From Botryllus schlosseri (taxonomy: Eukaryota): a DNA stretch of 64,000 nt. Numbering within the stretch: position 1 is the first letter of the stretch; each line of letters opens with the position of its first letter. A program made the translations under genes and the position numbers. The stretch is from positions 29,698,001 to 29,762,000 of the forward strand of contig CM119372.1 of the NCBI GenBank assembly GCA_051294905.1, read 5' to 3'. Positions 1-28,372 of the stretch are shown here, piece by piece. The notes beneath the pieces were generated by a model. That model was not told the origin of the DNA, made no database searches, and saw only the letters and a list, made by a program, of their open reading frames with translations.

Positions 1-7
1 AGAGTTG

Positions 8-30
8 GGTACTTGTGAAATAAGTGCCCG
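8..30 (+). repeat. Left terminal inverted repeat (23 bp, starts GG)
   Basis: GGTACTTGTGAAATAAGTGCCCG, immediately after agagttg; imperfect inverted match to 38988-39010. Confidence 0.8.
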
Positions 31-296
31 GAGGTCTAGGCGGCAATAGTTGTTGCACCATAAAATGGGTGTGTAGTAGGATAGTAAGTGTTTTACATGT
101 ACATTGAAATGAGGGTGAAAAAATAACTAGGTCTGGTAAGGAACAAGTGAAAAAAATAACCCTGTCATAAGAATAACACGGGATTAAAATATGAGAGAGT
201 CAGTACACATGAAACGACAAGAAAAAGGGGGGTTTGATCCGCTAAAGACGATGGGGAGTTGATCGACGCCACATGTCGTATTATTTACTTGCGCAG

Positions 297-1246
297 ATAC
301 GCGGAAAAGAACATACAATGTGTTGAGTTTGGTCGAATCGGGTGCACTACTAAACACACAAGATTGTGTACTATTTCTGAGAAATCACGGGTTGTTGGTG
401 CAGAAGATGAAATGCAAGCGATGTAAAAAAATAATGAAAGAAGAAAATACGTCGACAGGCGACGATGGGTTTAGGTGGCGATGCAACCCCTGCGATACTA
501 CGGCGACTATAAGGAAACACTCGATATTCGCAGGAAGCAAGGTAGAACTTCCCAAATTGTTAATATTATTCTACTTTTGGGCCCATGACGCGTTGCAAAC
601 CCAAATTGCGCATGAAGCCGAGATTAGCCAGCGTTCAACGGTAACCTGGTGCGGCCGATTGCGAAAACTTTGTACGGCCGAATTTCACAGGAATAAGCGA
701 CGTTTGGGAAATGAAGGCGGCTGTGTGGTCATTGACGAAACGCACTTAGCTAAACGCCGGACTGCCTCAGACAAGGGACCAGCCGTTAAAGCCATTTGGG
801 CGTTTGGGGGCATAGATAAAGCTACCGGAGAAATGTTCATTGAGATAACTTCTGACAGGACTGCCGAAGTATTTCGAAAACTCATAGTAGAAAATGTGGC
901 GGAGGGGTCCACAATTCTAACCGATGCTTACCCTTCTTACAAGGGCATAGAGAGCTGGGGGAAGGGTTATATACACGGTGTAGTGGACCACTCCCGTTGG
1001 TTTAAGGACCCTCGGACAGCTTTTTGTACTAATGAAATCGAGGGGGCCTGGGGCCAGCTTAAATATCACTTACATAGGTCTCGTGGGTTAGCACGTCACC
1101 TTTTGGCCGATTACGTAGGGGAGTTTTTGTGGAAACGTCAACATCAAAAGACTGACCGATTCTTGGCACTCCTGCGCACCATACACAATGACCCACGGTA
1201 TAATTTTGACAAATTTGATGGGTCTCCTGTATTACCACAATTGTGA
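297..1246 (+). CDS. Merlin/IS1595 (ISXO2-like) DDE transposase 1
   Basis: Zn-ribbon CKRC...WRCNPC, HTH-like segment, catalytic VVIDETH / ILTDAYPSY / HGVVDH...TNEIEGAW, all intact. The frame is open upstream of 320 (TRKRTYNVLSL resembles RKRRNLFNL of transposase 2) but has no ATG before 407. Acceptor-like ttatttacttgcgcAG ends at 296. Confidence 0.92.
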
Positions 1247-1375
1247 ACCCCGCTATAAGGTTCCAGGACGGAAATGACGACATCTGTTATTTTGTGTTTT
1301 TACAGACGGTAGTCTAGGGCTAGTGCGCGATTATATTTAATTCATGACGGGGCGAGAACCACCACTATCCGTACC

Positions 1376-3892
1376 ATGGACCTCCTTCCTCATTCTCTGT
1401 CTATCCTTATTGGTATCATTTGTACATCTGATTTGTTGCTGCATACGGCGGCGAAAGGCATGCACGGACTCGCAGATCCTGTAACAGGTAGAGCACGATC
1501 TTTCACTCAGGGGACGCTAGGTGAACTACGGGGACCCCTGCCTGATGAATGGATCACCTTAAATGATACACAATGGGAGGACTATCACTTGATGAGCATC
1601 TTCAATAAAACGGCGGAGCGACATGTATATAGACGGCCTGAGTTGTTTTACAGTAAGTCATTTGGTTACGTAGTGGCTGAACGATTTTCATTACAACAAA
1701 TGGCGTTTCCACATGGAAGATATTGGTCAAGCGTACAAGAATTTGAACGCACCTGTCTATGTCAGCGGCACCTGGGTCAAATTACGCCCAACATTTCCTA
1801 TGATGTTCTTAAACAAACGAACCTGTTCGTGCGCCCAATAGGATCTTATAGGATTCGCTGGTTCTGGAATGGGGACCAATACATGTCGTTTCATGACCTT
1901 GGCAAGAATTACTCTATGTTTGCTCTTACCAAATTTAAACTAATTATGATGAGACTATTCGAAAGTTATTCAGCTGTTGAAGCTTCATGCCGTCAAAAGC
2001 CAATGGGAGATCGGGACAGAGCCGAAATGAATGAATTGAATAAGTATAATGCCAGTAGCAATAGTTTTACACAATGCTGGCATCTAGTACAAAAAAGAGC
2101 CTACCGGGGCACCTATTGGCAACAATTGTACTCCTGGAGGGAAAAAGGTATCATAATAGGAATCTGTACAAGGTGTGATTTTAGAGGAGTTATCTCTGCC
2201 CTGGAACCAAATAAGGCAGATATAATCATCCAAGAAATAGTAATGACTACAGTAAGTGATTGGCAGTATGTGCGCAGTCCGTTGATACCATGCCGGGCCC
2301 AGGGGGGATGGATTAATCAGGATTGGTTTGAGCACTTATGGCCAGGGGGTGCTGTAATAGCCCATTCGTGCAACTTCTGGCCAGGAATGAATACCACTCT
2401 ATGGGGTGATCTACCAACGACAAATTTCCCCCCCAGAGTAAAATGGATACAACCGTCTTTTCCAAATCTGGATCACAGTGTGTATGCTAATCATGGCAAT
2501 CAGGGCATGAGGTGGAATAACCTTTTTGATGGTGTGCCGACTAGGTTTAGGGCATCTACATCAACATGGGTACCTTTTTCCAGGCCTATGTGGAAATACT
2601 TCCCCTCTCTTACTGCATCGGATGAAGCATGTAAAAATAGAATATCACATAACCAGGATTTGTGTCGCGACCCTGTGGGTGGACCCATTTTGAAGGCAGC
2701 CTTTTGGGACCATGTTCATTTTGATCCGGAGCTAAACTGACCACGCTTTCCAGGGGGTCCAATAGAAATTAAAGGTGAATTGGTATCAGGAAATACCGCA
2801 CAACGGGGAACGCGTAGAAGGCGTAAAAGGTTCCTGTCCGGACTGATATGTTTAGTATTCGCTGTGATATCCACGATCGCCGTCGTTGCGACAGTTTCAT
2901 CCCAGTTACATGAAGAGACGGTGGATCTTAGCCGACAAATAAATAATAGAATGACACAGGCCACGCAGAGGTCCACTGCACTAGGAAGGAAGATTAACGA
3001 ACTCTCTCTACTGCAAACAGCTCAACGACAAAAACTGGATCAAACGATCGCTACCATGGAAGTAAGGGCATCACTAACAAATAAACGACTTGTACTAATG
3101 GAAAAGTACATTGAAAGAAACCGACAAATGATAGTACGACAAGCCACAGCATCTCTGACCTCTTTTCAGAACTATAAGGAAATGAGTGACGCCGAACTAG
3201 CCATCGACCGATTGGTTTTGGACGAATTGGCTAATTTAACTGGCAAGTTAATATTTGACTCCAGCAAAGTATATCTCACTAAAATCCGACAAGGAACATT
3301 GCGGATAAAAGAACATGCTCAGCAATTAACAGCCTATAGGGACTCTTACATCAATGAGACGAATGACATTGGTATGGAACTACGTGCTAATCGTATCAGT
3401 CTAGATCAAGCCCAACAGAATGTGGATTTGGGTTTACAAGTTTGGAGAGAAGATCTGAATAAGAGTGTGTACATGAACATTTCTGACTGGCGATATGAGA
3501 ATATTACAGTGAAGCCTTTCGAATTTGTTGGAGGAGAAGAATTTATGAAGAACTTTGGCCAGACAATAGAAGAAATTTCACAAAATGCCGGCAGTTTGAT
3601 AAAAACGATAGGAGATAGCACAGGAGATCTACTACAAGATGGACTTGGCTCGGTCGGTGGTATATTTAGTAAGGGATTGAGTGGTCTTTTTTCCGGATTG
3701 GGGTCCGTGTTAATGCCGGTGATTTTGATATTGGGGGCTGGGATCATCCTGTTTTGTTGCTGTCGTTATAGCAATCTCTGCTGTCCTAAGTTGAAATCTA
3801 AGGTACAAAGGCGGAACACGAATACTCAGTTGACAATGTACATATCATCGGTACCAACCTCCGTTAAAACAGCCAAATCGACAAGAATGTAG
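1376..3892 (+). pseudogene. env: Envelope/fusion glycoprotein (SU-TM), one reading frame interrupted by a single TGA at 2738-2740
   Basis: ORFs 1376-2740 and 2780-3892 are in the same frame. N-terminal hydrophobic signal, N-glycosylation sequons, RRRRKR furin site followed by hydrophobic FLSGLICLVFAVISTIAVVA, heptad-rich region, Gly-rich membrane-proximal segment, TM VLMPVILILGAGIILF and CCC. Confidence 0.8.
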
Positions 3893-3978
3893 TGCACGCA
3901 TATGTACTCAAAGATTTTACTTTTATAAAATTTAATTTTTTCATAAGTCCACAGATATACTAACTAATTTATAATAAT

Positions 3979-6900
3979 ATGAATCGTTACCTTAAAATAT
4001 GGATGGTGCTGGCAATAACCTTAACACTACACCGAGGATATCTGCAAACTCAGGGCCAATTATTGCCCCTATCTGCCATGCGTGTGGTTCCCAGGATAGC
4101 ATTTAATCTTACAGGATGGACAACGTTCCGGTATCAAGGTCTCAGATACATCCGCCTTAATCGACTATTCAAATTAAACGAGAGTTGGCCAATAGGTGAA
4201 ACGGAAAATAATTTTCCAATATACGAAGAGACGCCCGAATTTGGTCCAACACGAGCTAGCCAAGATCGATTGTACAAGTTATTTGCACCCTCGGGGTCTG
4301 ACAAGAGGTATTGGAACAATGTTAGACAATACGAAAGAGAATGCGGGTGCAATCGGAAACTATCAAGAATATCTCCCGATATTACGTTGGCAGCCTTTAC
4401 CAGAACCACAACATATCGTCGAAAGAATAACTTTGGTTCAGTACATACATGGAAGTATGTAGTAGGAAGGGAAGCACACGGCACTATGGCTGTGCCAGGT
4501 CCGATCCTTCGGATGATCTCTCCTAATGCTACTCCACAAGTTACTATACACCAGCTGTTGACAGTTTACAAGTTATCAGTAATGAACCTCTTGGCACAAT
4601 ATGCAACAGTAACAGCAAGGTGTCAACAGCATTCGGAAGGAATCGAGGGGTGGAAGGTCGACAAAGGCGAATTTAGTGTATGCGTACTCGAAAATATTGG
4701 CGGGATGCGATGTATAGGATGTGCATATTATCCAGACAATCGGGCAGTGAATACACTGTCCAGAGACTTTGTGTTCATGGAAATAGATAACAGCATTAGA
4801 GGACCAGGAACAAGAATGCAGGAAACCTATTCTTACAGTCAATGGCCAGCGGGAGTCAAGCTACCCAGGCTACATCATGATATAATTTGGCTGAAAGCTC
4901 GCAACGAAACAGGCCCCAGGGAGAGGCCAGCAAACTTTGATGGTCATACTTGGTTTAGATTGAGGATTTACGCCCTTCGCGAACATCTAAATAATGATAC
5001 TCAACGGATAATGGGGAAGAAAAATTTTCCGACTATGTTGCAAGGCAGCATAGAATGTGAACGCAAGAAAAATAAGAAGGTTTGTCGTAATTCAATAGGA
5101 AGTTTGAAGACGGCCTTGGCCTTTAAGGAAGTGTTATATGATCCATATACAAATCAATCCGTGTATGCAGATCATAGCAATGGTCGCTTACAAATTGCAT
5201 CCCCAATACCTGCAGGTCAGGAATCTCCACTCAAAGTATGGCCTAAGAATCTACCCGATTGTAAGCAACCCGGTAGATTAGGCAACCTTATCCTGACTGC
5301 ATCATTCAAAAGCAATGGGCAAAACACAAGGAATATTGACTATTATCTAGCCCGCCTAGGAATGTTTTACGTAGAAGTAACGAAAAGGCGTTTACGCCAG
5401 TTATCTTTGCCCATATATAAAATGCGAAAAAACCTGGGGAGGTTGGACAGGTCCATAACTGGTAAAGAGATGGAGTCTCTAAGTCAGGCGCTACGGTCAG
5501 CGTTGACACCTCAGAAACTGAGTAGGATAAATAAAGAGTTACTGAGCTATATGTCAACGCGCAAGCTCATAGAGGCGCAGCTTCATGATATACGGATGTT
5601 CCGACCTGGTGTGGCCTACAAAGCCATAATATGCGCTGGAATATTGGTGTATACGCCTTATGCCTATAATGACAATAACGAAGTCAGAACTAACTCTGAA
5701 ATGCCATTAAGTACCGCGGAATCAATAACGACAAAGGCTGTAAGTTACGAAGGAACCACTCGAAAAGTGTCTCCTAGCTCCGTAATGCCACGAAGTAACG
5801 CGGAAGCAATAACGACAAGGACTGTAAGTTACGAGGGAACCACTCGAGAAGTGTCTCCTAGTAGCGAGACTGGTATATGGTTTAATTTCACTCCTGTTGT
5901 AACGACTCCAGAACCCACTGCGACAATGGTAAAAACCATAACAATTGCTGAGGAAAGTGTAAGAATGACGAATCAATACGATACTAACCACTATAACTAC
6001 GATTATATAGAAGGTTATGACGAAGGATTTGACTATGCCGGTTATGACAATAATACTAGTTTTCAAGACTCTGGAAATTACTACTACAATTATTATGACG
6101 AAGACGTAGAATATGATGGTTCATTAACACGCAGGCCCATACCCGTAGCTTATACTACGAATTCCACAAATATTATTGAAACTACAATGGCGTTACCAAT
6201 GATTGAAACTCCAACGTCGACCAAAAATACTCAATATACGATCGAGTTAACAACGGATACAACAATTTCCACGCCAAGAACGTCTGCACATGCGTTGGAT
6301 AGCATTACGACCGCATTATCAACTACTACAATCACACCAAATACTAGAGAGTTGACATCGGCCATTGTTATTTCCGGAACGACTTCATCGACACCACTCC
6401 CAGCCATATTGACTACTGTGCAGTCCTCACGCGAAAATAACACTAGCCCAAGACCAATTGCATCTATTACTACATTCTTAACTGCAGTGAAAACTGTTAG
6501 TGAGCAAGAAAGACGCAGGACGAGTCCCACAAATATTTTCACAACTGTGGAATCGTCTACGGCTATATCAACACAGATGGACGCTCAGAAAAGCATGGGT
6601 ATTGCTGCGACAGGAGTCACCTTTTCCAAAAGCGAGTTAGCAACACTTATACCAATGGGGAGCACTGCAAACTCAAGGTTACAATGGAATACCATGACTT
6701 ATCAAACACCCACAAAAAACGGTGAAATGATAGGCTCCATATCAGTGCCAATAAAGAAAACGCCCCAGATTACGCAGACACCTGAGTCTTATATACAATT
6801 GAGTCGTCACACAAATCAACTCATGGAGACGACACCGCCAAGAGCGCATGTCAATGTGCTGTTTGATACAACCCAAGTAGCAACGACAGTCGAAACGCAC

Positions 6901-7467
6901 CAAAATTTTGTCACCAGCAAGTCCCGCTCTAATACAGAACCAGATAATTTAAACAAAGAGCAAGACCTACAGGTAAAAACTAAATCAACATCAATGCTTT
7001 CATCAGGGGACTATCAGAGCGAACCCACATCAGTAAGTAAAAATGATGTGATCAGAAGTTGGAAGAGTACTTCCAATAGTGCACTTTCTTCAATTACACC
7101 CTCTATCGAAGAAGAAGGAAAAACTACACTCAGTATACCGCATACCTTACCTACGGCCAAATATGACAGACTGGACCGAATTACATTTGACTTCTATGGA
7201 CGACTACACAATCTACAAGAAATGGAACAAGGATATGCAGCAGGTAAAAATATTGTTGATATTAACAATAGAAAGGATTTAGAAAAATCACTTAACAATC
7301 ATGCCTTGATCTTTGCGGTTAGCGTAACAGCCATGGTAGAATGTATGTATTTATGTTATGCGAAATGCGGGAGAGTTGCAGCTAAAACTTATCTTAGAGA
7401 GGTTATTCGGCGGAATAACCAAAAGACGTATATTACAGCAGTAACATTGCATGAAAAACTGAGATAG
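3979..7467 (+). CDS. Type I membrane glycoprotein: env-SU paralog domain + Tyr/Asp cluster + Ser/Thr mucin stalk + C-terminal TM
   Basis: Signal peptide; RYWNNVRQYERECGCNRKLSRISPDIT aligns to env RYWSSVQEFERTCLCQRHLGQITPNIS; Thr/Ser-rich ~5680-7150; hydrophobic ALIFAVSVTAMVECMYLCY near the C-terminus. Confidence 0.75.
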   Translation: MNRYLKIWMVLAITLTLHRGYLQTQGQLLPLSAMRVVPRIAFNLTGWTTFRYQGLRYIRLNRLFKLNESWPIGETENNFPIYEETPEFGPTRASQDRLYKLFAPSGSDKRYWNNVRQYERECGCNRKLSRISPDITLAAFTRTTTYRRKNNFGSVHTWKYVVGREAHGTMAVPGPILRMISPNATPQVTIHQLLTVYKLSVMNLLAQYATVTARCQQHSEGIEGWKVDKGEFSVCVLENIGGMRCIGCAYYPDNRAVNTLSRDFVFMEIDNSIRGPGTRMQETYSYSQWPAGVKLPRLHHDIIWLKARNETGPRERPANFDGHTWFRLRIYALREHLNNDTQRIMGKKNFPTMLQGSIECERKKNKKVCRNSIGSLKTALAFKEVLYDPYTNQSVYADHSNGRLQIASPIPAGQESPLKVWPKNLPDCKQPGRLGNLILTASFKSNGQNTRNIDYYLARLGMFYVEVTKRRLRQLSLPIYKMRKNLGRLDRSITGKEMESLSQALRSALTPQKLSRINKELLSYMSTRKLIEAQLHDIRMFRPGVAYKAIICAGILVYTPYAYNDNNEVRTNSEMPLSTAESITTKAVSYEGTTRKVSPSSVMPRSNAEAITTRTVSYEGTTREVSPSSETGIWFNFTPVVTTPEPTATMVKTITIAEESVRMTNQYDTNHYNYDYIEGYDEGFDYAGYDNNTSFQDSGNYYYNYYDEDVEYDGSLTRRPIPVAYTTNSTNIIETTMALPMIETPTSTKNTQYTIELTTDTTISTPRTSAHALDSITTALSTTTITPNTRELTSAIVISGTTSSTPLPAILTTVQSSRENNTSPRPIASITTFLTAVKTVSEQERRRTSPTNIFTTVESSTAISTQMDAQKSMGIAATGVTFSKSELATLIPMGSTANSRLQWNTMTYQTPTKNGEMIGSISVPIKKTPQITQTPESYIQLSRHTNQLMETTPPRAHVNVLFDTTQVATTVETHQNFVTSKSRSNTEPDNLNKEQDLQVKTKSTSMLSSGDYQSEPTSVSKNDVIRSWKSTSNSALSSITPSIEEEGKTTLSIPHTLPTAKYDRLDRITFDFYGRLHNLQEMEQGYAAGKNIVDINNRKDLEKSLNNHALIFAVSVTAMVECMYLCYAKCGRVAAKTYLREVIRRNNQKTYITAVTLHEKLR
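5701..5862 (+). repeat. Two in-frame copies of an 84-bp (28-aa) unit in the mucin-like ORF
   Basis: MPLSTAESITTKAVSYEGTTRKVSPSSV / MPRSNAEAITTRTVSYEGTTREVSPSS. Confidence 0.9.
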
Positions 7468-15600: not shown

Positions 15601-17138
15601 AACAATCCACGGTAACGAGTATAAAATGGTGCAAATCATTAGTATGCGTAATGGGTCATGAATAATTTGCCGCAGGCAACAGCGATGTTGCAAATTGGAA
15701 AATTGACGTTTCCAAAAAGATATCATTTCTAATTATAAGTAAATAAGGTTACTAGCTTTACACCTGTTGTCAGGGTCTATCAAGTACTTGTGAATGTCGG
15801 CCCTAAACCTATAAAAGCTCTAATCAGCTAATTGAAATTGATAATAACTTGAGGCGCTATGATCTAATTTATTTAGTTTATTCTAGATGTTTTGTCGTCT
15901 ACTGGGGTCATTAACACCAGGCTGATATTGGTCTTACTTTTCCGAAACTATCGACTTATAGCTTGACCTACCGCTCGGATTTTGTGGGACACTGCTAACA
16001 CGGCATAGCGGGTGATGAGAGGTTTTTAGTTGTCCAATATTCATAACAAACGAGAAAGTGCGCATCTAGTCAGTAATTCCTCAATTTGCGCGCAGAACAA
16101 AAGGGATACGAACCCGAAAGTTCGGCCTAATTTATTGGAATTGTCACGTGAACACTAAGCAAGTAGGCACATCCGAGTCTATTTGCGATTGATGGTGCTA
16201 GTTTGAAATTGTCAACCCTAAAGAAACAGCGCGCGCCATGCGTTGAAGCTCTATTTCATATACTGACAGTTCATGATTTTTTGGGTATTAGGCCGTGCCT
16301 ACAATGGAAGTTGGCGACTTGGTGTTTTGATGAGATAGGAGGGATAAGGTTCAATGAAACTCTTTACTATATATAAAAGATTAAAAACAAATCACGCAGT
16401 AGTTAAAGGCCAGACATATGCTCCACGTAAGTCCTGGTCAGTCAGTCGGATATATAATGATCCATTACAACCTTAATAATACATTATTTCTACGGCCTGA
16501 TTAATAGAAGTAACAACATCAATGGGTTAATATTAAATCCGCGAAATAATTGTGTTTAATAGTGGATGTACAGCCACAAACTAGATTGCAGCATAGTAAA
16601 TTCTCACTCAAATTGAGGTATGAATGATTGATAACGGAATTTGATGACTTGTACTGCACGGTGCGATGTGTGGGCATCGGCTCCTGCGCAAATAGGTGTA
16701 ATTTTGTTAAAAATCAGGTATATGAACTATATGATGGTGTTCAGATTGTAATTGCTATAAACCAGACTATAATTACGGCACTCTATGACCATCAATTGGG
16801 CGGATGGCTGGGCTCTAAAGGACCCAGAATCATTTCATGAACTAGTATTGATCGTGGATGGTGACTTTGGAAAATTAAAAAACTTTTTTCGAAAAATTTT
16901 CGTGTAGTGAATGGTTTCTAGCCGTCAAATATCTCGAATGCACTATAAATATAGCAACAAGCATGTCGTCATTTAACATTACTATGCCACAGTTTATCAA
17001 CACTCGACAAAATAAATGGAGCCTTCCTGCTGGTTACTTGGAAAATTAATGACACATGGGCTTATTGCATTTCCACAGGCCTGGTATATATAAAGCCCAG
17101 TAACCACAATACATCTCCTTGTTGGTACAATTGTGGCC

Positions 17139-17708
17139 ATGACAAGTGCTGATGCCATGGAGCCCTCTGTTCTAGATGAACAGATTTGGACCGGAAGGTG
17201 GATTGTTGTTATAAAAAATATAGATGAAATTCTCAAATCATGCCAACCAACGCCTAAAGCAGAAGATAGTGATACCGAAAAGGACGAAAATGAGGGGAAT
17301 AAACAAGAAATTGACGAGGCAACCTTAGAAAGCTACTTCGAAAGGAACCCGTCGATCTGGGGAGATGATACAGACTCGGAATTAGATCTCACTGACTCGG
17401 ATGAAAGTTCGAGTACCTTGTCTGGCTCTGGACATGACTCTGGACATGATGTTATAGAATCCTATCTTTTCCCAGATCATGAATTGAGACCTTATCCGAA
17501 TTCCGAATCCAGTGATTTGACAGATTCGAATGAGAGTCTGAATACCATACCCGATACGGGTGGCGTCCCTGAGTGGGCTGATACTGACTCTGGAGTTAAT
17601 AGTAGCGATTCCGATCTATCCTCAGATCATGAACAGTTACGATCTCTTGACGAGGCAACTCTCAGGCGCCTTGATAGAATGTTTTGGCGCCCCTGGAATA
17701 ACGAGTAA
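17139..17708 (+). CDS. Cargo ORF, acidic Asp/Ser-rich protein of unknown function
   Basis: Intact ORF with TATATATAAAG ~50 bp upstream; DEATL motif occurs twice. Confidence 0.65.
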   Translation: MTSADAMEPSVLDEQIWTGRWIVVIKNIDEILKSCQPTPKAEDSDTEKDENEGNKQEIDEATLESYFERNPSIWGDDTDSELDLTDSDESSSTLSGSGHDSGHDVIESYLFPDHELRPYPNSESSDLTDSNESLNTIPDTGGVPEWADTDSGVNSSDSDLSSDHEQLRSLDEATLRRLDRMFWRPWNNE

Positions 17709-17956
17709 ATTTGGAAAACTATGCGATCAAAATGTACAAATTGATGTGATCAGCAAAATCTTAAATGTACATTAACAATGTTGCGACTGTTACAAGATAT
17801 GTTATGTTTTCTGTGCCTCATAGTGAAACAATTACATACTGTGGACGATTGTTTTTTTGTTTGTAACTATGGAATGATGACAGGTTAGTCAGCAGATTTT
17901 AAGAGAGAAAGAACAATTAGGCTGGTATGTGATACAAAATAAAAGTTTGGTTTAGT

Positions 17957-18325
17957 CAAGGCTGGCCAACCTTTTTTTAGCCTAAGGGCCACATTAAATT
18001 GAAGAAATACTGCGCAGGCCACTACCGCGCGAAGCGCTAAAAGCTTTTGAAATTTCTAGACCAAGTATATTGTAACTTGACTGTGTTGAGGATTGCCGTA
18101 TATCATTAGGCTGAGTTTACGCGGAGCGGGCTATGCGGCGCATGGCCATATCGATAACGTAAGCTGCGACCAACATGCGTCAGTCTTTCCGTGCTTAGGA
18201 TTCATAGTCAGCGATGTTACTGCGAATGCAAACGCAAGGTCACACATGTTCAACGACACTTTTTCCCTTAATTGCGAATATAGTTAGGCTCAATAATAAA
18301 AAAAAATAAAAAAAAAATAAAAAAT
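17957..18325. mobile_element. Truncated hAT/Charlie-like MITE fragment between cargo ORFs
   Basis: Starts caaggctggccaaccttttt...agggccaca, resembling the ends of 55619-57214; no matching right end found. Confidence 0.5.
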
Positions 18326-18592
18326 TGGCCGTTTTTCCAGGGTCACAAAATGGAAATTAATTAGCCGGCCCTGAGTTAAGACAATTAAGAATTGTTAGAT
18401 TGACAAGTGGCCAAAGATGACACCTTTCTTTACCTGGTAAAGGAATAATTAACCCCAAATAGGACTAATAAAGAGTTAGCAAAATTCAGTGTTGGGAATA
18501 TCATTACCGATATCTTACAATAATCTCGGCTGAAAGAAACATTATTATTTTTTGTTAAGGTGTAAAAATAACACGGTGTCTTAAATTAAAGA

Positions 18593-19111
18593 ATGTCTGC
18601 CTCAATAACTAAAGAACAATTATGGGAGCTATCAATTGAAAATATCGAACTATGGTATGAGGTACTTCGAGGGGTGAAAAAGACAGAGAGATTACAACGA
18701 TGGAATGATTTTTTCAAGGACATTAAGAATAACACTAGACATTATGCGGAGACCTTCTTCGAAGGAATGGGAGCAAGTAATGAAAAGGTTAAAGAGTGGC
18801 CATGGCGAAATGACTATCGGAGAAAACACGTAAAAAATCGAAAGGTAGCAAAAGTAAAACCATATTCACAAAGAAAACCTGCCTCAAACAAACAGAATAG
18901 AAGGGAAGAAATAGAGACCAGCTCCTTAACATCAACAAGTAGTCCTTTCTTGACGTCCTTACTGACGCCACCTTCAACGAGCCACGACTTGCCGCATAAT
19001 AGCAATGTTATGTCAGATGGGACGTATACATCGTTTGGTAGTATCATGTTTCGGCAACAGCCACCTACTGCTCAACTTCAACCTACAACAGCATATCATG
19101 ATGATGGTTAG
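18593..19111 (+). CDS. Cargo ORF, unknown (helical N-terminus, basic middle, Ser/Thr/Pro tail)
   Basis: 172-aa intact ATG ORF, co-oriented with the cluster. Confidence 0.6.
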   Translation: MSASITKEQLWELSIENIELWYEVLRGVKKTERLQRWNDFFKDIKNNTRHYAETFFEGMGASNEKVKEWPWRNDYRRKHVKNRKVAKVKPYSQRKPASNKQNRREEIETSSLTSTSSPFLTSLLTPPSTSHDLPHNSNVMSDGTYTSFGSIMFRQQPPTAQLQPTTAYHDDG

Positions 19112-19283
19112 ATAAATTCTAGCATATTGTTTGACTCACATGATTGGTGAGGTTGTATGAATAAAAGTTGAGCTAATGTATTTTCTCTGTTTTACATTGA
19201 TTTACAATATGAACCAATCTATTGAGAGTTGTATGAATAAAAAGGAAACATTCTGTATTCTAGAGTTATAAATAGTGAACTAA

Positions 19284-20156
19284 TTGAAGAAAGAAATGTG
19301 CTACGGGCTATTGTGCGACCCTAATACGGATCACAAGGTTGTCTACGAGTGGGCAATGCAGTTCGATCTTACGCAAAGGCAGCAGATAGTAATGGAAACC
19401 ATAAAAACTGCGCCGGTTCGGGATCGTTTGATGAGTCTCTTGTTCGGCACTTGTGAGCGGGACAATCCAAGGGTACAATATTGGCAACAATGTATGTACA
19501 CCAAGGAGGACTGGACAAAAATAGGAAAGCCTTTTCACCCGGTTGGGAGCGGTGAATGTAAACAATGTTACCTTATGAGACACGTAAAACCGTATTTCAA
19601 GAATACCGGGCAGATTTTGGAACTTATGACATTATGCCATGATTATTTAAAAGAAGCTTGTAGTATGCACAAAGGACTAGATCAAAACACCGAAAGAGAT
19701 AAAGGACATATAGTGCTTTATGTGTTATATCCAGAAGCGATAATAACCGCCATAGCTCTCCTGTTGCAACAATATCGGGGGGAAAAAAACATGCGAACAT
19801 TTTGTTTTACGAGATGTCGGATGGACGCAGAATTTGAGTTTCTATTTGGGGGAAATCTAGAACAATGGAGATTTACATACGGGTCCACGAGCACGTTTGG
19901 TTATTTGGGAGGCGTTTTTATTCTACCGATTGACCAAGTGTCGGAATCAACCTTTAAAAACTCGTTAAAAAAAGAGGGAGACAAACAAATAGTCAAAAAC
20001 ACCAATTCGGAAACTACCTTGATGTTTGATATTGAATCTTCAACCAGTAGAGACAGTAGGTTTCCAAACAGACCAGAGGCTCCGACCCGAATGGTAGCTT
20101 TACGGAGACCCAGTGTAGATGGATCCCATGCTGCCTCTAGTGGTAATATGGGCTGA
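19284..20156 (+). CDS. Cargo ORF, paralog family A (first ATG at 19296)
   Basis: NPRVQYWQQ and IVLYVLYPEAIITAIA match NPRLLYWKQ and LIMWIIFPEVQIYALA of 23296-23850. Confidence 0.7.
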   Translation: MKKEMCYGLLCDPNTDHKVVYEWAMQFDLTQRQQIVMETIKTAPVRDRLMSLLFGTCERDNPRVQYWQQCMYTKEDWTKIGKPFHPVGSGECKQCYLMRHVKPYFKNTGQILELMTLCHDYLKEACSMHKGLDQNTERDKGHIVLYVLYPEAIITAIALLLQQYRGEKNMRTFCFTRCRMDAEFEFLFGGNLEQWRFTYGSTSTFGYLGGVFILPIDQVSESTFKNSLKKEGDKQIVKNTNSETTLMFDIESSTSRDSRFPNRPEAPTRMVALRRPSVDGSHAASSGNMG

Positions 20157-21517
20157 TTCCAAAATAAGCTACTATTAGTTTGATCTAGAAATTGTATTGA
20201 TTGATCTGGACTTTTAGGGCTAGCCTAAAAGATAAGCCATGATAACTGAATTATTTAGGGCTGACCGGTGGTGGTTTAGGACAACTTATCAATTCGGCAC
20301 TACTACCAAAAGGTCAAACTTAACGGAAAAAGTATAGAAGCCGGTTATAGTGAAACTTGAGATTAGCAAAAGTAGAAACTATATACCTGTATTTTACGAT
20401 ATATATATACTCAGTTATTAATACAGTTTCCCTTTTTATTAAATGATTTCGATACATTGATCAATCGCTGGGATAATTCCCACCACCACCTCCCCTAGAA
20501 TAACATCCCGGGGACTATGAGAACTTGATACTTGAATGCAAGATCGACCTATCTTTATTGCCAAAACTTTTTAAATTCGAAAAGAACTTGTTATTGTAAA
20601 TTATGAAAAACTGCACGTTTTTTGTTTACTGTTATATTGAATGTTATGTACGTATTTTCGGCTGCAATTTTCGTGTTGAAATTTAGTCTGTAATGGCCCC
20701 AGACCACCTACCCTATCACAAATCACCTCGTGTTCATACTTAAATGTTATGCTAATCGAATTATATTTTATAAAGGCTGACGTGAGCGTAATCTTTTCTG
20801 TTTTGCCCACAATTGTCGCTCTGCCAAGATCTTTTTGTATGAGCCTCACACCAAATTGCTGCTAATTGAGTTATTGCTGTTATTACAATTTTATTTGATT
20901 ATGTAATAGTTTTGTAAAGTAGTCTTTTGAAAATTACTCACATTCCTGTCTCATGGCACCCTTCCTCTAATGGTCTCTATGAGACGAAGTTGTATATTAC
21001 TTGTATAATTGACCCTTGAATTAATTAGTTTCGCCGTCCAGAGAAACTCGTGTCAAAACATGTCTTATGGAAGGGAAGGCAGGGATGATGATTAATATTA
21101 CTTTTTAATAATGTTTTAATTGATATGTTGTATAACTTTTCCCACTAAAAAAAATCTTCAAAATGATGAAATATCGGAATTTGTTTATAAGTTATAAAAA
21201 TTAATAAAAATGACTGTCAAAACCAAAAGAGAAAAGCCATATTCTAAGAAAATCTTCAAAGGAAAAAATTATATAAATAAAAACCAGAAGAAAAATTTAC
21301 AAAATAATAAAATCCCTTGTGGGGGGGAGAGAATTATTGCCTAATAAGTACTGGGTGATTAATAAATGAATAAATGTCTTTATGAGTATGGAGGATACTT
21401 TATATAAGTGCTGAATGAAAATTAAAGGCATTATATGAATCTTGAAAATTGCTATACCGAGAAAATGGAAAATTGTACATATTTTTAAGGTATTAATAAA
21501 AAATAAAAATAAAAGGA

Positions 21518-22084
21518 ATGTTGGAATTTGATTATATTGAAGGTTACGATCCATCGAATTGGTGTCTTTTGTACGATGTATATGATGAATTGGATCTATT
21601 GAATCTGAAAGAATATAACAGCGAATATGAGAGATACCAGTTAAAAGAAAGAATATGGGAATTGCTTACGGACCGAGTTGATTGGGTTAAACAAACAGAC
21701 AATGGCCTAGCAGAGGCAGCCCTAGATGAGGAAATAACCCCAGAAATTTTTGATATATTCAATCGTGTGGTAGAAGAGATATTTGAAATAAGAGCGAAAG
21801 AATACACCTCTTTTGGAAGAAGAGTCATGTTGTATGAATTGATTAGAGGACTTGTGATGAAACTTACAAACACTAATATAACAAAGGATGTGTACCAGGA
21901 GAGAGAATATTGTAAAGATCCGCCACATATGGAACAATGGAATTGTCAAAATAATTTGGGAATAAAAGGCTATTCAAGTTCAATACATTGGCGAACAAAA
22001 AGGATAAGGCGAATAGAAATACATCCTTACCCCTACGAAAGGGAAAGTGTGAACATTGACTTTATAATACCGGAACAATCATGA
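21518..22084 (+). CDS. Cargo ORF, paralog family B
   Basis: RRVMLYELIRGLVMK...QNNLGIKGY matches RRVVYEVIRGVVMK...QKNLGVKGY of 25040-25753. Confidence 0.72.
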   Translation: MLEFDYIEGYDPSNWCLLYDVYDELDLLNLKEYNSEYERYQLKERIWELLTDRVDWVKQTDNGLAEAALDEEITPEIFDIFNRVVEEIFEIRAKEYTSFGRRVMLYELIRGLVMKLTNTNITKDVYQEREYCKDPPHMEQWNCQNNLGIKGYSSSIHWRTKRIRRIEIHPYPYERESVNIDFIIPEQS

Positions 22085-22181
22085 ACAATCATGAGTAATG
22101 ACAACGAATGTAAATAAGATTTTGACTTACAAAGGGCACATTTTCCAAAGGTATAGAGTAACAAAGTGGGTTATCTAATTC

Positions 22182-23231
22182 ATGAGTAAAATGAACCGAG
22201 TGGAACTACTAGTATTATGGCTGGGTATGTGTAATGCTATTTATCCGGAAACAATAGAACAAAAGAAGTGTACAACAGATGAAAGACGAACCATGTTATA
22301 CCCGGAATGCATGCAAGGAAGCAATTTGGTACTTTGGTGTGACCATTCGAGCTATACAAGAATTCCGGATCCTGATAAGATATACCTGGCAAAATCTTGT
22401 CGGAACACAGAAAAGATATTCATCAACGACAGCTGCCTACGGGAAATAACCAAAGAACAATTGGAAAAATATAAAGACATAGAGGTGTTACATTGTGGTT
22501 GGAATAAAATCCAAATACTACAAGGAGGTGCCTTCTGCAAAAATGAAAAACTCAGGGAAATAAACTTGATGCGAAACTACATCACACAAATTGAAAAGGA
22601 AAGCTTTTCAGGCTTACACCAACTCGATAGTTTGTATTTAAGCAGTAATTTACTGGCAGAGATAGAAGGATCGATATTTTCAAGCCTGGAAAACCTAAAA
22701 AGACTATATTTGGATAACAATGTCATAAAGAGACTAAAGAACGGAACATTCAATCATCTGCGTCGTTTAAGAATACTGGATTTATCAAGAAACGCAATAA
22801 ACGTTATAGAAGAAGGGGCGTTCAAAGGACTGAGGAAACTGGAAACTTTACATTTGGATGAAAATAGACTGGTTGAATTTGATATGACAATACTCGAATC
22901 TTTATGTAATTTAGAGAGATTAACGTTGTACTATAATAACTTACGATATTTTTCTCTGTCCTCCAACATCTCGTTCAAATATCTACATACTATTGATCTT
23001 AGTTATAATCATGTTCAATTTCTTAGTGATTCCCTATTGAAAAAATTACCAGATTTGGAGGTTTTAAAATTAAAAAGAAATAATAATGAAACGTCTACCA
23101 AAAGACCCTACGTGCGTAAACAATCGAGATTATATTATGCTGAGATGAAAAGTTTATCCCATTGTGTGACTATACATTCAAAAGGTGCATTTGCCTTTAT
23201 TGTTTGGCTAGTCACTATCGACCTGATGTAA
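22182..23231 (+). CDS. Secreted or membrane-anchored leucine-rich-repeat protein, intronless
   Basis: Signal peptide, Cys-containing LRR N-cap, about eight 24-aa typical LRRs (LxxLxLxxNxIxxI...F.gL), hydrophobic C-terminus. Confidence 0.88.
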   Translation: MSKMNRVELLVLWLGMCNAIYPETIEQKKCTTDERRTMLYPECMQGSNLVLWCDHSSYTRIPDPDKIYLAKSCRNTEKIFINDSCLREITKEQLEKYKDIEVLHCGWNKIQILQGGAFCKNEKLREINLMRNYITQIEKESFSGLHQLDSLYLSSNLLAEIEGSIFSSLENLKRLYLDNNVIKRLKNGTFNHLRRLRILDLSRNAINVIEEGAFKGLRKLETLHLDENRLVEFDMTILESLCNLERLTLYYNNLRYFSLSSNISFKYLHTIDLSYNHVQFLSDSLLKKLPDLEVLKLKRNNNETSTKRPYVRKQSRLYYAEMKSLSHCVTIHSKGAFAFIVWLVTIDLM

Positions 23232-23295
23232 TTTGAAGAAAATGTGGAATTTCGAGGTATTGATTTAGTATTGTCCTCTGTTCAACTAGTAATAG

Positions 23296-23850
23296 ATGTT
23301 TAATATATTAGAATACGGTAAAAAAATTACTAAAAGTATCAAAATGTGTTTGGGATTGCGTTGTGATGATCCAGATATACAACATACGACGTGGATACCC
23401 CAAAAAGAAACACTAATAGACAACGGATTAAAGTCGCTGAAGTTTCTGTTGACAACATATTCACTGACGGATCACTTATGTGATATAATGTACGACGAAT
23501 TAAATCCACGACTACTATATTGGAAACAAAAGTATGGTGTCACAACATGCAACAATCATTGGCTTGGGAAACATCTGGTTGAAAATGAGTGGGAAGAAAT
23601 TTATACAGGAAGCATTTACCCTGAAAAACCTATACAAATGGCTTTTGCAGAAATTTGCATAAACTGGGTAACAATTTTAAAGAGAGTAAATCCTGAAATA
23701 AGGGAATTTCTAAAAAAGGGAGATTCTGAAAGAGATCTCATAATGTGGATAATCTTTCCGGAAGTTCAAATTTATGCATTGGCAAAGACGCAGGAAATAT
23801 CATTAAAGGAAGCCGATTGTAGATTTATGACTTTGAAAGTACCTGCATGA
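23296..23850 (+). CDS. Cargo ORF, paralog family A
   Basis: Shares two motifs with 19284-20156. Confidence 0.7.
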   Translation: MFNILEYGKKITKSIKMCLGLRCDDPDIQHTTWIPQKETLIDNGLKSLKFLLTTYSLTDHLCDIMYDELNPRLLYWKQKYGVTTCNNHWLGKHLVENEWEEIYTGSIYPEKPIQMAFAEICINWVTILKRVNPEIREFLKKGDSERDLIMWIIFPEVQIYALAKTQEISLKEADCRFMTLKVPA

Positions 23851-23918
23851 AACTTAACTTTCCGATGTTTATGTATACAGAAACTACTTTTAAAAAGACA
23901 ATTAAGTTTTAAATAAAT

Positions 23919-24866
23919 ATGAAGACTAAAGAACCCAGAAAAAGAAGAAATCTATTCAATCTTGCTCGATGTGGTATAATATCAAGTGAACGAAAATGTA
24001 TAAAGTTTTTGCGATCACGGAAACTCCTTGTTCAAAAGGCAACATGTTTTAAATGTGGACAACAAATGAATGAAGAAAAATGCAAAAGAACTATGGATGG
24101 ATATAGATGGAGGTGTCTGGTTTCAAAGTGCCGGACTACCACGTCCATAAGGAAAAGATCGCTATTTGAAGGAAGCAAAATAAGACTCACCCAACTTGTA
24201 ATGATGATTTATCTTTGGACCATAGATGCATCTCAACGACAAATAGCTTTTGAAGCACACGTCAGCAAGAGAACAATGGTGAATTGGACCAAGAAACTTC
24301 GTAAGATATGCTCTGGGGAGATGGAAAGAAGAGGTACTCTAATAGGGGGAATCTCACAAGGTAAATCACATGTAATTCAAATTGATGAGACGTTTGTGGC
24401 CAAAAGAAAATTTAATCGTGGAAGAATAATACGCCAACGCTGGGTTTTGGCTGGAATAGATATGAAAACGCGAGAAATGTTTGCAGAATTGGTACCTGAA
24501 GAAGGGAGAAAAACCTCTGTATTATCAGAAATAATTATGAAACACGTAAAAGAGGGATCCACTATATGGACTGATTCATTTGCCAGTTACCGCAAGTTGG
24601 AAAGCCTGGGAATGAATTATAAACATTCAATAGTTAATCATGATCGCGAATTTGTCACCCCAGAAGGCATAAATACACAATTGATCGAGGTGTCTTGGAA
24701 TTTTTTCAAAGCTGCTATTAGAAGACTGAATGGGGTATCAAGATCACATATTCCCCATTACTTACAGGAGTGGCTCTGGAAAAGAAGGGTGGCCTTGGAG
24801 GAAAGGTTTCAACTATTTTTGGAGATAATGGCCCTTGATCCTAACTTTAGGTCATTGGAACATTAA
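23919..24866 (+). CDS. Merlin/IS1595 (ISXO2-like) DDE transposase 2
   Basis: CFKC...WRCLVSKC, IQIDETF, IWTDSFASY, HSIVNH...TQLIEVSW; own ATG; clearly diverged from transposase 1; no flanking TIRs seen. Confidence 0.92.
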   Translation: MKTKEPRKRRNLFNLARCGIISSERKCIKFLRSRKLLVQKATCFKCGQQMNEEKCKRTMDGYRWRCLVSKCRTTTSIRKRSLFEGSKIRLTQLVMMIYLWTIDASQRQIAFEAHVSKRTMVNWTKKLRKICSGEMERRGTLIGGISQGKSHVIQIDETFVAKRKFNRGRIIRQRWVLAGIDMKTREMFAELVPEEGRKTSVLSEIIMKHVKEGSTIWTDSFASYRKLESLGMNYKHSIVNHDREFVTPEGINTQLIEVSWNFFKAAIRRLNGVSRSHIPHYLQEWLWKRRVALEERFQLFLEIMALDPNFRSLEH

Positions 24867-25039
24867 AACAATGTTGTCACTATGACCAGTATCATTCGAT
24901 ATAAGTGATTTGAATCTTTTGGGAAACAATATAGGCGTAGATGAGTATACTAGTGTTATAATCCACATGTTTATAAAGCTATGAAATGTTTCTATTTAAG
25001 TACATATATGAGTGAGAATTATAGAATAAGCATATTATT

Positions 25040-25753
25040 TTGTTATTGTGTCACAGTGGGATAATGTATTTATATGAAATAAGGAGTCATAATGCGACTA
25101 TTTTTCAAAACCTACTGACACAACTGGATGAGGTTGAACTAACAAAAAAACCTAAATTTCTCAGCGTCCTGATGAATGTGCTCAAGTCTTTTTTTGAAAA
25201 GGAACAAAATTGGTATAAGAGACCGAAAGCATGTGATGGTGATGAATCTTGTGCTTGGACGTCAGAAGAAGACACAGACAAAGATTCAAGCCCAGATGAA
25301 TTATATGAAACAGACTCCGAAGACTCCCAAGATTCTGCCATAGTGAAAAATTCATCTCAACAACAACGTGTAATAGTATGGAAAGAGCAGACGATACAGC
25401 CTGATGAAAATTCATGGACTATAATTACGGAAACACTATTGGGAGTAATCAGAAGAATACCACCCTCAGGAATAAGGCGAGTAGTATATGAAGTCATACG
25501 AGGAGTAGTAATGAAATATACCAGAATTTGGATATGCATAACTAATCTTGATTATGTGGAAAGTGCCAACTCCAAATGGTCATGGCACAGCCAAAAGAAT
25601 TTGGGGGTAAAAGGATATTTGGCATTGGATTATGAAACAACTGCTATGGAAGGATATATATATATTTACTCAAAAAGAGTGAATAGAGAAACTGAGTCGA
25701 TGAGACAATATCTGGAAAATTTTTATCATCTTGCTCATAATCCACATTATTAA
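25040..25753 (+). CDS. Cargo ORF, paralog family B
   Basis: See 21518-22084; carries an extra acidic stretch. Confidence 0.7.
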   Translation: MLLCHSGIMYLYEIRSHNATIFQNLLTQLDEVELTKKPKFLSVLMNVLKSFFEKEQNWYKRPKACDGDESCAWTSEEDTDKDSSPDELYETDSEDSQDSAIVKNSSQQQRVIVWKEQTIQPDENSWTIITETLLGVIRRIPPSGIRRVVYEVIRGVVMKYTRIWICITNLDYVESANSKWSWHSQKNLGVKGYLALDYETTAMEGYIYIYSKRVNRETESMRQYLENFYHLAHNPHY

Positions 25754-26014
25754 TGAGTAGGTTAAAACGCCTAAGCTATGGAATTAATGGAATCAATGTT
25801 AATTGTGAAAGTGATAAAATCCGTTATTAATGGGATAAATTTAAGATTGTGGAAAATTGAAATTCGATACATTGAAACTATTGTTATTAACATTTGTTGT
25901 TGCATGAAATTTTAATGGTCTTTGTTTTTCATTTAAGAACAGAATGTTTATGTGTTAATACTAGAATATTGGATTGGTATGATTGTATTTAACCATTTTG
26001 ATTGGTATTACTGA

Positions 26015-27765
26015 TTGCCTGTTCTGTCAAAAGCCATTATACCAAGAAGCAATCAATTTGAAACTATGGGCATTCTGATGAAAAGAGATCGTGATCCTCC
26101 TGGACATAATTGCATTTATATTCCACCTGGAGATCACCGGGTTGAGCATTACAGACTTGCAACGTTCAAACATTTTCCGAAAGAAATTCCTGTGATACCG
26201 AGTTATCTAGCCGCTGCTGGTTTCTATTGGACAGGATTTCAAGATAGAGTAAGATGTTACTGCTGTGGCGTATCTGTGGAAAAATGGGTCACTGGAGATG
26301 ATGCCTTTGATGACAAGTGGCATAAATCTACTTGTGACATGGTGACCGGACAACATGGTTATAACTTGCCTATTTCAAATTGCTCAAGGAGGCTCCTTTT
26401 TGAACAAATTAGGTGCCACCTTAACTTTACTACAAGAAGTCAGCAAACTAATCGGAATGTGCAAAAACCGACTATTAAAGAGGAAAAATGTCCATTACCG
26501 CAAACCGTGTTTGCGAACATTTGTGACCAAGAACATGAGACTTCATTGCGATCAGCAAATTTGAGAAGTGAACTAGAGAGAAGAAGAACCTTTGACAAAT
26601 GGCCTTCCTATCCTGCTCCATATTTGGTTGGGGAATTGGCAAAACAGGGATTTTTCTACCTAGGAAACCTTGACAGAGCGCAATGTTTTTCATGCTCAGG
26701 AGTACTGAGAAATTGGGCACCCACTGATAATGTTCTTGAACAACATAAAAGACATTTTATGCAAAAAAATGCAAAATGGCAAATAACGAGTATGCGGGAA
26801 ACATGTCCTTGACAGACTCCGAGAGAAATCAGGCAGATAATGAACTTAAAATAAAAATTGAAAGGTTAACTGCTAATAGGGGAGAACCTCCGGATCCATC
26901 GCCAGAAGAACAACTCCAGTTGGTGGAAAGATTCCCTTGCCTTTACCCGATAAATTTGCATATGACATCGTTACAGCAAAGAATATCTTCGTTTAATGAA
27001 AAATGGCCCAGGATCCTCGCAACAGCGGAACAATTGGCTAAAGCGGGTATGTATTATCTAGGGGATTCGGACAGAGCGAAATGCTTTTACTGCAATGGAG
27101 GACTACAAAACTGGAACTACAATGATGAGCCGTGGACAGAGCATGCAAAGTGGTTTCCTGGTTGTGAATATGTTTTGCAAATGAAAGGTATTAATTTCGT
27201 TTTACGACTAAGAGATGAACATCCCAATCTCAATCGACCATCGATAAGAAATGCAATATGTCTTGATGCACCACGAGAAGAGATACGAAGGAACCATAAT
27301 CGACCAAGGTTATCTGGACAATACATAAACAGGATGCAATTGGAAGACATGGGATTCACGAGAGATCAAATAGAAGGAACTATAAATAGACAAATTAATG
27401 ATCATTTCTCTACTGGTGACATAATCCAAGATTTACTGGAGACAGTGGATACAATCTCCACGAGTCCAATAAAAACAACACAACAACAAGTTCCCAGTAT
27501 GTCTGAAAATAAGCATGAAGTGAACAACAACAAAGAAACGAAAGAGGCAGCAGTTGCAGAAACAATGTCGGTGGATGAAATCGCGCAAAGTTTAAAAGAA
27601 ATACAAGAGGTGGTGCTTTGCAAAAATTGCAAGAGAAACAAAAGTGAAATTACTTTCATACCTTGTGGGCATTTATGTAGTTGTGAAAGATGTGCAACAA
27701 ACTCTGAGCGATGCAACATTTGTGGTGAAACAATACTGGAAAAGATAAAGGTGTATAGAGCTTGA
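26015..27765 (+). pseudogene. IAP: Inhibitor of apoptosis (3 BIR + UBA-like + RING), intronless, frameshifted at A7 run 26763-26769
   Basis: BIR1 RLATF...GFYWTGFQDRVRCYCC, BIR2 GFFYLGNLDRAQCFSC...EQH, BIR3 GMYYLGDSDRAKCFYC...TEHAKWFPGC, LEDMGF, C-terminal RING CKNC...PCGHLCSCERC...CNIC. ORFs 26015-26812 and 26776-27765 join at the end of BIR2. Confidence 0.92.
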
Positions 27766-28367: not shown

Positions 28368-28372
28368 GAGGA

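Follow-up and report, generated by a model that had tools for sequence, protein, structure and literature searches.

Merlin DNA transposons end in short inverted repeats that start with GG and make an 8–9-bp target duplication. Among elements with long terminal repeats (LTRs), the errantiviruses of the Metaviridae are envelope-bearing; the Caulimoviridae of plants combine an integrase-less reverse transcriptase (RT) and RNase H with internal priming by tRNA-Met, circular DNA and terminally redundant RNA; DIRS/YR retrotransposons integrate via circular DNA by a tyrosine recombinase; and in bacteria the circle-junction promoters of IS3/IS911 and the permuted prophages are cases in which joined ends switch on or complete recombinase expression. 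To our knowledge, reverse-transcribing elements integrate through LTR ends with an integrase, by tyrosine recombination or by target priming, if they integrate at all. Merlin is paired with the IS1016 group of IS1595-family DDE transposons (PMC5718144), and the env of the tunicate element Tor3a is spliced from the 5′ LTR (PMC4402516). Here we analyse a 64,000-nucleotide stretch of Botryllus schlosseri DNA (contig CM119372.1, positions 29,698,001 to 29,762,000; “the window”) whose positions 8–39010 are a 39-kb element with Merlin-type inverted ends, gag, an integrase-less pol and env-like genes. We read it, with a probability of roughly two in three, as a Merlin-ended, permuted retroelement whose Gag and transposase would be fused by a splice, 34764 → 297, that becomes possible only once its ends are joined in a circle.

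The limits of the element are marked by the following features:

8..31, plus strand: left terminal inverted repeat (imperfect, GG first), the element start; homology of 30 copies starts here; partner of 38987–39010
38987..39010, plus strand: right terminal inverted repeat; in lineage P the same end comes after ORF3, not pol
39011..39018, no strand: 8-bp target-site duplication; its left copy is positions 0–7

Both inverted ends are 24 bp long and imperfect. The left end matches 30 further near-complete left ends genome-wide (82–98% identity), and when 30 left/right pairs were tested for target duplications 23 had one of 8 bp and one more had 9 bp, while 6 pairs, guessed or rearranged, had no matching duplication; duplications were also found in 4 of the 5 distant copies read for them and in 4/4 of lineage P. 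Counts out of 30, 7 and 37 below refer to 30 close and 7 distant (~68% identity) copies, 37 in all, and the copy counts exclude L059 (truncated) and L051 (deleted); L078 is without the 5′ part of gag. The gene order is transposase 1 (PF12762), an env-like gene, open reading frame (ORF) 3, ~9.6 kb without long ORFs, cargo genes, gag, RT, RNase H and Tpt1. The window copy is defective, with a stop in env at 2738–2740 and a pol split between protease and RT; most siblings are open there.

A transposase without a start and a likely donor inside gag

Three acceptor motifs at the left end, two candidate donors and a possible local first exon are central to what follows:

281..296, plus strand: acceptor 1 (phase 1), to which the gag donor 34765 is predicted to splice
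297..1246, plus strand: transposase 1 exon (IS1595/Merlin DDE; PF12762, E 4.5e-10), no start codon before 407
1287..1305, plus strand: acceptor 2, in the env 5′ untranslated region; kept in 37/37 copies and also in lineages P, Q, S, T, U and V; likely spliced-leader acceptor
3924..3954, plus strand: TATA-like box (3924–3930) plus acceptor 3, whose readings overlap; CAG in 29/30 close and 7/7 distant copies (by eye)
65..74, plus strand: ATG then weak phase-1 GT, a rival local mini-exon for transposase 1; 17/30 close copies, none seen in the 7 distant ones (alignment)
31478..31486, plus strand: donor proposed earlier, rejected here
32550..35345, plus strand: gag; capsid-like domain ~33600–34160, zinc knuckle 34851–34895
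34762..34770, plus strand: phase-1 splice donor in gag (GT 34765–34766), between capsid domain and zinc knuckle

A first-pass annotation of the window had noticed acceptor motifs ahead of the three left-end ORFs, and they are indeed present, with their AG at 295–296, 1304–1305 and 3953–3954. Scored by simple rules set by hand, and not by a trained model, sites 1, 2 and 3 rank 5, 1 and 4 among the 467 AG sites in 8–7467, and an equally good site occurred in 9.3%, 0.9% and 8.6%, respectively, of 2000 draws of a random 120-nt host stretch. The phase-1 CAG ahead of transposase 1 is kept in 37/37 copies (30 close, 7 distant), and a phase-1 acceptor stands at site 1 in lineages P, Q, U, V and T as well; site 3 is present in most of six further lineages, more weakly than site 2, and the acceptors are retained at 36–60% protein identity. 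We take the three motifs, on this ranking and conservation, to be real acceptor-type sites. Site 1 is a coding acceptor in phase 1, and sites 2 and 3 are in untranslated leaders, because all three frames close between each of them and the ATG of env or ORF3, 24–38 nt further on. An acceptor system common to the cargo genes was considered and rejected: when the other element genes were scored, only 2/17 fell below 5% background.

Also upheld is the earlier claim that transposase 1 lacks a usable upstream start while its N-terminal part is conserved. The in-frame ATGs at 65, 191, 209 and 251 reach stops after 3, 23, 17 and 3 codons, and codons 299–406, ahead of the first internal ATG at 407, are constrained (compared with a distant copy, their ratio of nonsynonymous to synonymous differences, pN/pS, is 0.28, and that of the remaining gene 0.18). 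An open in-frame upstream ATG is found in 8/37 copies, at seven different places, and thus none is conserved. Three outside homologues have a translated pyrimidine tract plus AG at the same point of the transposase, with a different upstream sequence in each. These observations support the view that transposase 1 requires an upstream coding exon.

That exon's donor had been sought at ACG/GTGAGA 31481, a site that does not hold up: it is in phase 0 where phase 1 is needed, and GTGAGA with an upstream ATG recurs in only 2/14 other close loci. Among GT sites from 31.9 kb to the right end, 16 score ≥6, and the best is the one inside gag. It is in phase 1, as is acceptor 1, and is kept in 17/17 close copies that retain the segment (3/20 do not) and in 4/4 distant ones; in all of these 17 and 4 copies an open frame runs into it from an upstream ATG, over 738–783 codons in most, and one copy alters the amino acid there and keeps the GT. 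G|GT stands at the aligned gag column in 12/12 elements of six more lineages whose Gag is 35–60% identical, with donor scores of 10.4 in P, Q, U and V, 6.5–7.1 in S and 5.4 in T. With one representative from each of eight lineages, 147 fourfold-degenerate columns could be aligned (39 in gag, 108 in pol), and the only one of them with an invariant third base is the glycine codon of this donor. A pol–transposase fusion from a donor at the end of pol was rejected, as there is no conserved phase-1 GT and the candidate at 38484 is missing in 4/4 distant copies. It thus seems likely, from the comparison of copies, that transposase 1 is made as a Gag–transposase fusion by splicing gag 34764 to 297, and that its donor is gag 34765, the only strong, conserved and frame-matched one, 34.5 kb downstream.

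The resulting protein of ~1050 residues could be packaged and so take the place of an integrase. The PF00098 match in gag is below cut-off. A structure model of the capsid-like domain (pLDDT 72) gave top fold matches that are mostly retroelement capsids, at Z 6.1–6.5, which is the range of common helical matches; the best capsid match was copia CA (Z 6.4, root-mean-square deviation 6.9, 158 residues aligned), and a Foldseek search with this model gave no match under E 0.001. In Pfam scans the window pol and 7 outside homologues all lacked an integrase domain, and the 22 scanned ORFs of the element included no tyrosine recombinase; PF12762 was above cut-off for both transposase 1 and transposase 2. 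A Tpt1/KptA RNA 2′-phosphotransferase domain (38240–38700) closes pol where an integrase would sit, and is also present in 5/7 of the outside homologues scanned; it perhaps has a role at the tRNA primer.

Sister gene orders and signs of reverse transcription

A transposase-1 orthologue stands directly behind pol in seven loci. The five collinear loci that were read have gag, pol, a phase-1 acceptor that follows the pol stop by 87–111 nt, then transposase 1, env and ORF3, with frames open on both sides of an ordinary 4075–4201-nt intron that starts from the same gag donor (in lineage P, for example, C12:25763688 to 25767813). In four of them (lineage P), elements of 38.2–44.2 kb whose target duplications were verified, the right end is almost the same as in the window and lies behind ORF3; the ends of the fifth (lineage Q) were not found. 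The window and sister forms thus share one circular order and differ in the position of the end pair, which in the window family sits inside the predicted intron, and the best explanation of this arrangement is that the integrated window element is a circular permutation of a gag–pol–transposase–env genome. A block move in linear DNA is a possible source of the sister order; the window order brings pol to transposase 1 only across joined ends. The transposase tree does not unite the collinear forms in a single clade (p-AU 0.0003; the test group was named after a quick tree had been viewed, and module exchange could also yield non-monophyly). At the left ends of lineage P (for example C12:25736951–25737250) the first 270 nt are similar to the left end of the window element and stop at what looks like a decayed acceptor, which no transposase follows, a hint that the window's arrangement is the older.

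The first-pass annotation had proposed that all three left-end genes are readily expressed only from a circle or tandem copy and so could be silent while integrated and switched on by excision. The template part of this proposal is supported for transposase 1, whose message, since an upstream exon is needed, the only strong conserved frame-matched donor lies 34.5 kb downstream and unpermuted sisters exist, is best read as coming from a circular or head-to-tail template. Head-to-tail ends gave 0 matches in the assembly, so that of these two the circle is left. This requirement probably does not extend to env and ORF3 (below).

The right-hand part of the element has features that bear on reverse transcription:

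31976..31999, plus strand: DNA copy of the chordate spliced-leader exon, the presumed 5′ end of genomic RNA
32225..32242, plus strand: 18-nt primer-binding site complementary to the 3′ end of host tRNA-Ile(AAT); internal, unrepeated
32272..32541, plus strand: short hydrophobic ORF lying after the primer site and ahead of gag, with counterparts in lineages P and U and in the distant subfamily
36917..38737, plus strand: RT, RNase H and Tpt1/KptA domain (Pfam); cut off from the protease part in the window copy

An LTR ~31 kb downstream, as had been supposed, does not exist as such: there is no LTR pair, only one unrepeated region with leader and primer site at ~31.8–32.25 kb, and no long direct repeat was found within the element or bounding 13 related stretches, whose ends are inverted repeats. 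The tRNA-Ile(AAT) primer site is kept in 20/21 close right-hand stretches, the exception being without that part. Other lineages match tRNA-Thr(AGT) or tRNA-Thr(CGT) at the same spot, three tRNAs in all, and both of the latter occur within lineage P, in copies that are ~92–94% identical. LTR elements copy the primer site from the primer, and therefore such switches imply completed cycles. The spacer just after the primer site has three lengths in 27 copies, against one length in 3/4 control intervals. Of 13 purine runs of ≥13 nt, one lies at 38889 after pol, and none could be assigned as a polypurine tract. In most siblings pol is a single frame of 1150–1205 codons, and RT–RNase H is under purifying constraint (pN/pS 0.05), as is env (0.34).

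The segment 31976–31999 matches 24 of the 25 letters of the “Chordata 1” leader in Table 1 of PMC3795323. The leader sequence has 236 exact matches in the genome and 39 element copies carry it, in 35 of which (those where our pattern found a primer site) it lies 215–293 nt before the primer site. GT follows the leader in only 19/39 copies, so that it is no conserved cis donor, and we infer instead that it is the copied 5′ end of a leader-headed genomic RNA. In L109 the leader is joined 7 nt further on, immediately behind an AG present in the sibling sequence, which is the trace expected of a shifted trans-splice; a deletion at a 2-nt microhomology fits equally. Upstream of the leader copy, 31050–31950 has many tandem duplications, insertions and deletions among copies, including a 54-nt block present up to 4 times in distant copies, and is likely an enhancer or promoter region; an Rfam search of 31000–32600 gave no match. 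No single linear copy can yield the terminally redundant RNA that an internal, unrepeated primer site would need, and together the primer site and the leader copy point to reverse transcription of circle-derived RNA.

A proposed cycle and its rivals

The ends, target duplications, acceptors, donor-like site and its phase, primer site, leader copy and sister permutation were read directly from the DNA, and the following steps are our proposal for how they are connected. Transposase supplied in trans, by transposase 2 or by a collinear sister element with the same right end, would excise a copy and its ends would be joined. Transcription from upstream of 31976 would then give a longer-than-unit RNA headed by the host spliced leader, from which removal of a 4.5-kb intron (zinc knuckle, pol and the end-to-end junction) would join ~740 Gag codons to 316 transposase codons; the fusion enzyme would ride in the particle via its capsid domain, regardless of the junction sequence. 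Trans-splicing of the leader to 1306 and 3955, for which any transcript from upstream could serve as substrate, would likely free env and ORF3 from this long RNA. Finally, tRNA-primed reverse transcription would regenerate the circle, and the transposase would open the junction and insert the element with an 8-bp duplication. The broader picture, on which we are evenly balanced, is of an animal family of enveloped, pararetrovirus-like elements that switch between two states, a permuted provirus that is silent and a circle that is active; in this picture the Merlin ends join inside an intron, Gag–transposase replaces integrase, the host leader heads the 39-kb RNA, starts the repeat region and releases the env genes, and the cut point has moved at least 2 times.

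The two genes behind transposase 1 are as follows:

1344..1484, plus strand: upstream ORF of 46 codons, hydrophobic, that overlaps the start of env in a different frame; 13/16 copies shown, pN/pS 0.37 against a distant copy
1376..3892, plus strand: env-like glycoprotein; stop in the window copy, unbroken 820–839 codons in 25/30 close copies
3979..7467, plus strand: ORF3, a second surface-glycoprotein-like gene with a Thr/Ser-rich stalk; N terminus distantly related to env (tblastn 23–35%)

The env-like protein has no Pfam match and a weak feature likeness to class I fusion proteins (score 0.89–0.90). The protein encoded by the 46-codon ORF, which contains Cys-Cys and a basic run, is conserved between lineages; it is possibly a small membrane protein read by leaky scanning. 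For env and ORF3, trans-splicing of the host leader at 1306 and 3955 is the best reading and one that we think somewhat better than even, since the host leader is available and the leader region has no donor (in two scored copies of the window family no site from −460 to +420 around the primer site reaches a score of 5, and the lineages have no donor in common). Spliced-leader genes are recognized by an acceptor without a conserved upstream cis donor in a host that has a leader, and sites 2 and 3 are such acceptors. Leader trans-splicing needs only some upstream transcript, so env and ORF3 need not wait for excision and might be active in the integrated copy. That the DNA leader copy serves env as a cis-spliced first exon was rejected because of its inconstant GT, and a TATA/initiator start is a live alternative for ORF3.

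Several observations weigh against the circle-dependent Gag–transposase splice or the trans-splicing that goes with it. Lineage S has the donor-like GT and no phase-1 acceptor, and lineage T has its own ATG after the acceptor, so the GGT at the gag donor may be constrained for another reason. When RNA reads were aligned over 1–8000, two raw RNA runs, read to ~6% (X24) and ~3% (X22), placed 14 of 12.9 million and 38 of 22 million reads there with no joint into 297, 1306 or 3955, and no read in either run lay over 1306 or 3955. A few X22 reads at 1–534, sense if the library is of the usual droplet type, suggest RNA upstream of acceptor 1. (Two contig runs, X4 and X11, cover 1–8000 evenly with many variants, as DNA would, and their three joints are not at the acceptors.) No circle has been observed. 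Linkage across the junction shows no excess (r2 0.12, against 0.131 ± 0.034), in a weak test whose expected excess is about 1 standard deviation; within segments r2 is 0.15–0.19 at 100–500 nt and decays within ~500 nt, and the copies are heavily mosaic. A retrocopy joining leader to env had 0 matches in the assembly. The local route from ATG 65 to GT 69, which the first-pass annotation overlooked, is present in more than half of the close copies, and a TATA-like box 29 nt before site 3 is found in 27/29 close copies and is not evident in distant ones.

Of the competing explanations the one that survives best, improbable as we consider it, is that all three sites are spliced-leader trans-splice acceptors in an operon fed by host read-through or a weak left-end promoter, with transposase 1 starting from ATG 407 and no circle. 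The host's chordate leader, the element's copy of it, the closed frames at sites 2 and 3, the ATG right after acceptor 1 in lineage T and the probably sense reads at 1–534 would all suit such an operon. Yet the leader is without an ATG and codons 299–406 are constrained, phase 1 is fixed in all 37 copies and in five more lineages, and the invariant gag donor and the permuted sisters are left unexplained. Slightly less probable is that the Gag–transposase splice occurs without a DNA circle, between two RNAs, by back-splicing of a 35-kb read-through, or only in collinear P and Q elements that act in trans. P and Q can cis-splice as integrated, P shares the window's right end, and the unseen circle and unraised junction linkage fit; however, transposase 1 is open in most copies of the window family and constrained, and the tRNA-switching, internal, unrepeated primer site would still need terminally redundant RNA.

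We regard as quite unlikely a third explanation, in which transcripts start locally, transposase 1 from the mini-exon under a left-end promoter and env and ORF3 from TATA/initiator promoters that mimic a CAG acceptor; of the three genes it is likeliest for ORF3 alone. In its favour are the mini-exon itself, the TATA-like sequences ~30 nt before site 3 and, in 6/7 distant copies, before site 2, and the internal promoters of the Oikopleura Tor3b/4b env genes (PMC4402516). The acceptors are common to the lineages and these features are not, however: a TATA-like sequence precedes site 2 in 0/30 close copies and 0/6 other lineages, and the mini-exon was not seen in distant copies. A plain Merlin DNA transposon with captured retroelement genes, whose splice-like motifs and primer site are relics with no part in its spread, is very improbable, as its typical ends, duplications and transposase and the near absence of RNA on 1–8000 in the two raw runs are set against the constraint on RT and env, the primer switching, the leader copy, the length changes at the edge of the primer site and the acceptors kept between diverged proteins.

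Other features and comparison with known systems

The middle of the element is taken up by genes that are largely missing from a 25-kb subfamily:

17094..31089, plus strand: cargo genes, namely LRR, transposase 2 (23919–24866, own ATG), IAP in two frames, UBC and unknowns; mostly without acceptors

The IAP gene (26015–27765; three BIR, RING) is in two overlapping frames in the window copy. A multi-copy non-autonomous derivative (L070, L072, L073 and further matches) has shared deletions of gag 34223–35201, which removes the donor, and of RT 36505–38272; as it retains the leader, primer site and right end despite these deletions, it is probably copied in trans. L051 and L063 are short copies with internal deletions at microhomologies, 439 → 31500 and 7929 → 32221, the latter right at the primer site. 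At least 4 more lineages of 14–27 kb (C1:20.33–20.35, C8:10.40–10.42, C13:16.46–16.47 and C8:10.24–10.26 Mb) have the window's order with pol 50–80% identical, and near a pol lineage at ~40% identity (C3:28.68 Mb) a transposase was not found within 20 kb. In the host flank a separate element with 785-nt inverted arms (92% identity) occupies 52104–54736, and a 305-codon open frame without a Pfam match lies on the minus strand at 59663–60580.

A literature search aimed at the element, which covered few subscription papers and did not cover Repbase, found no description of it, and no relative of its pol was found among the viral contigs searched. The window family resembles Merlin/IS1016 in its PF12762 transposase, short GG-starting inverted ends and 8–9-bp target duplication, and differs in its 17–44-kb length, its gag, RT, RNase H and env-like genes, its primer site and its start-less transposase; primer switching and the leader copy argue for an RNA step, unlike plain Merlin movement. 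Drawn as a circle, its map has the gag–pol–env order of envelope-bearing LTR retroelements, with which it also shares RT and RNase H, a tRNA primer site ahead of gag, an acceptor before env and possibly a capsid-like fold, whereas it has neither LTR pair nor integrase, its pol ends in Tpt1, it is permuted, and its Merlin transposase is predicted to be fused to Gag. With the Caulimoviridae it shares an integrase-less RT–RNase H and internal tRNA priming and, if our reading holds, a circle and terminally redundant RNA; it differs in its animal host (chordate leader), env-like genes, precise integration by a transposase and Ile/Thr primer, not Met. The best solved-structure match of its RT is 8r0s (“Enzymatic polyprotein”, E 2e-16), which we take to be a caulimovirus RT, ahead of foamy virus and Ty3 RT (2e-12), in a best-hit ranking and not a tree. 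It is like DIRS elements in being a retroelement that would integrate via circular DNA with an enzyme other than integrase, and unlike them has a DDE transposase with target duplication, a tRNA primer site, env-like genes and no tyrosine recombinase. The joined ends recall IS3/IS911 and the permuted prophages, except that here the predicted junction lies inside a spliceosomal intron and completes a coding fusion in a eukaryotic retroelement. Finally, spliced-leader polycistronic units (PMC3795323) likewise have acceptors just before the starts of tightly packed genes and a host leader, and the window unit differs in being a mobile element with its own DNA leader copy.

The element is thus not an LTR retroelement (no LTR, no integrase) and not a caulimovirus (primer, host), and it has Merlin ends; judged from its sequence, its way of working is most likely that of a pararetrovirus, with a permuted provirus as the integrated form. 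If this is true, a cut-and-paste transposase acts on a circle, the provirus is permuted as in a prophage, and an ordinary splice ties the integrating enzyme to excision, which would offer a route for swapping integrase for an unrelated transposase that stays packaged. The reading makes an exact prediction, the join 34764 → 297, which is impossible from a single linear copy by ordinary cis-splicing and is a plain intron in the collinear sisters, and it would make the element a living intermediate between LTR retroelements and pararetroviruses.

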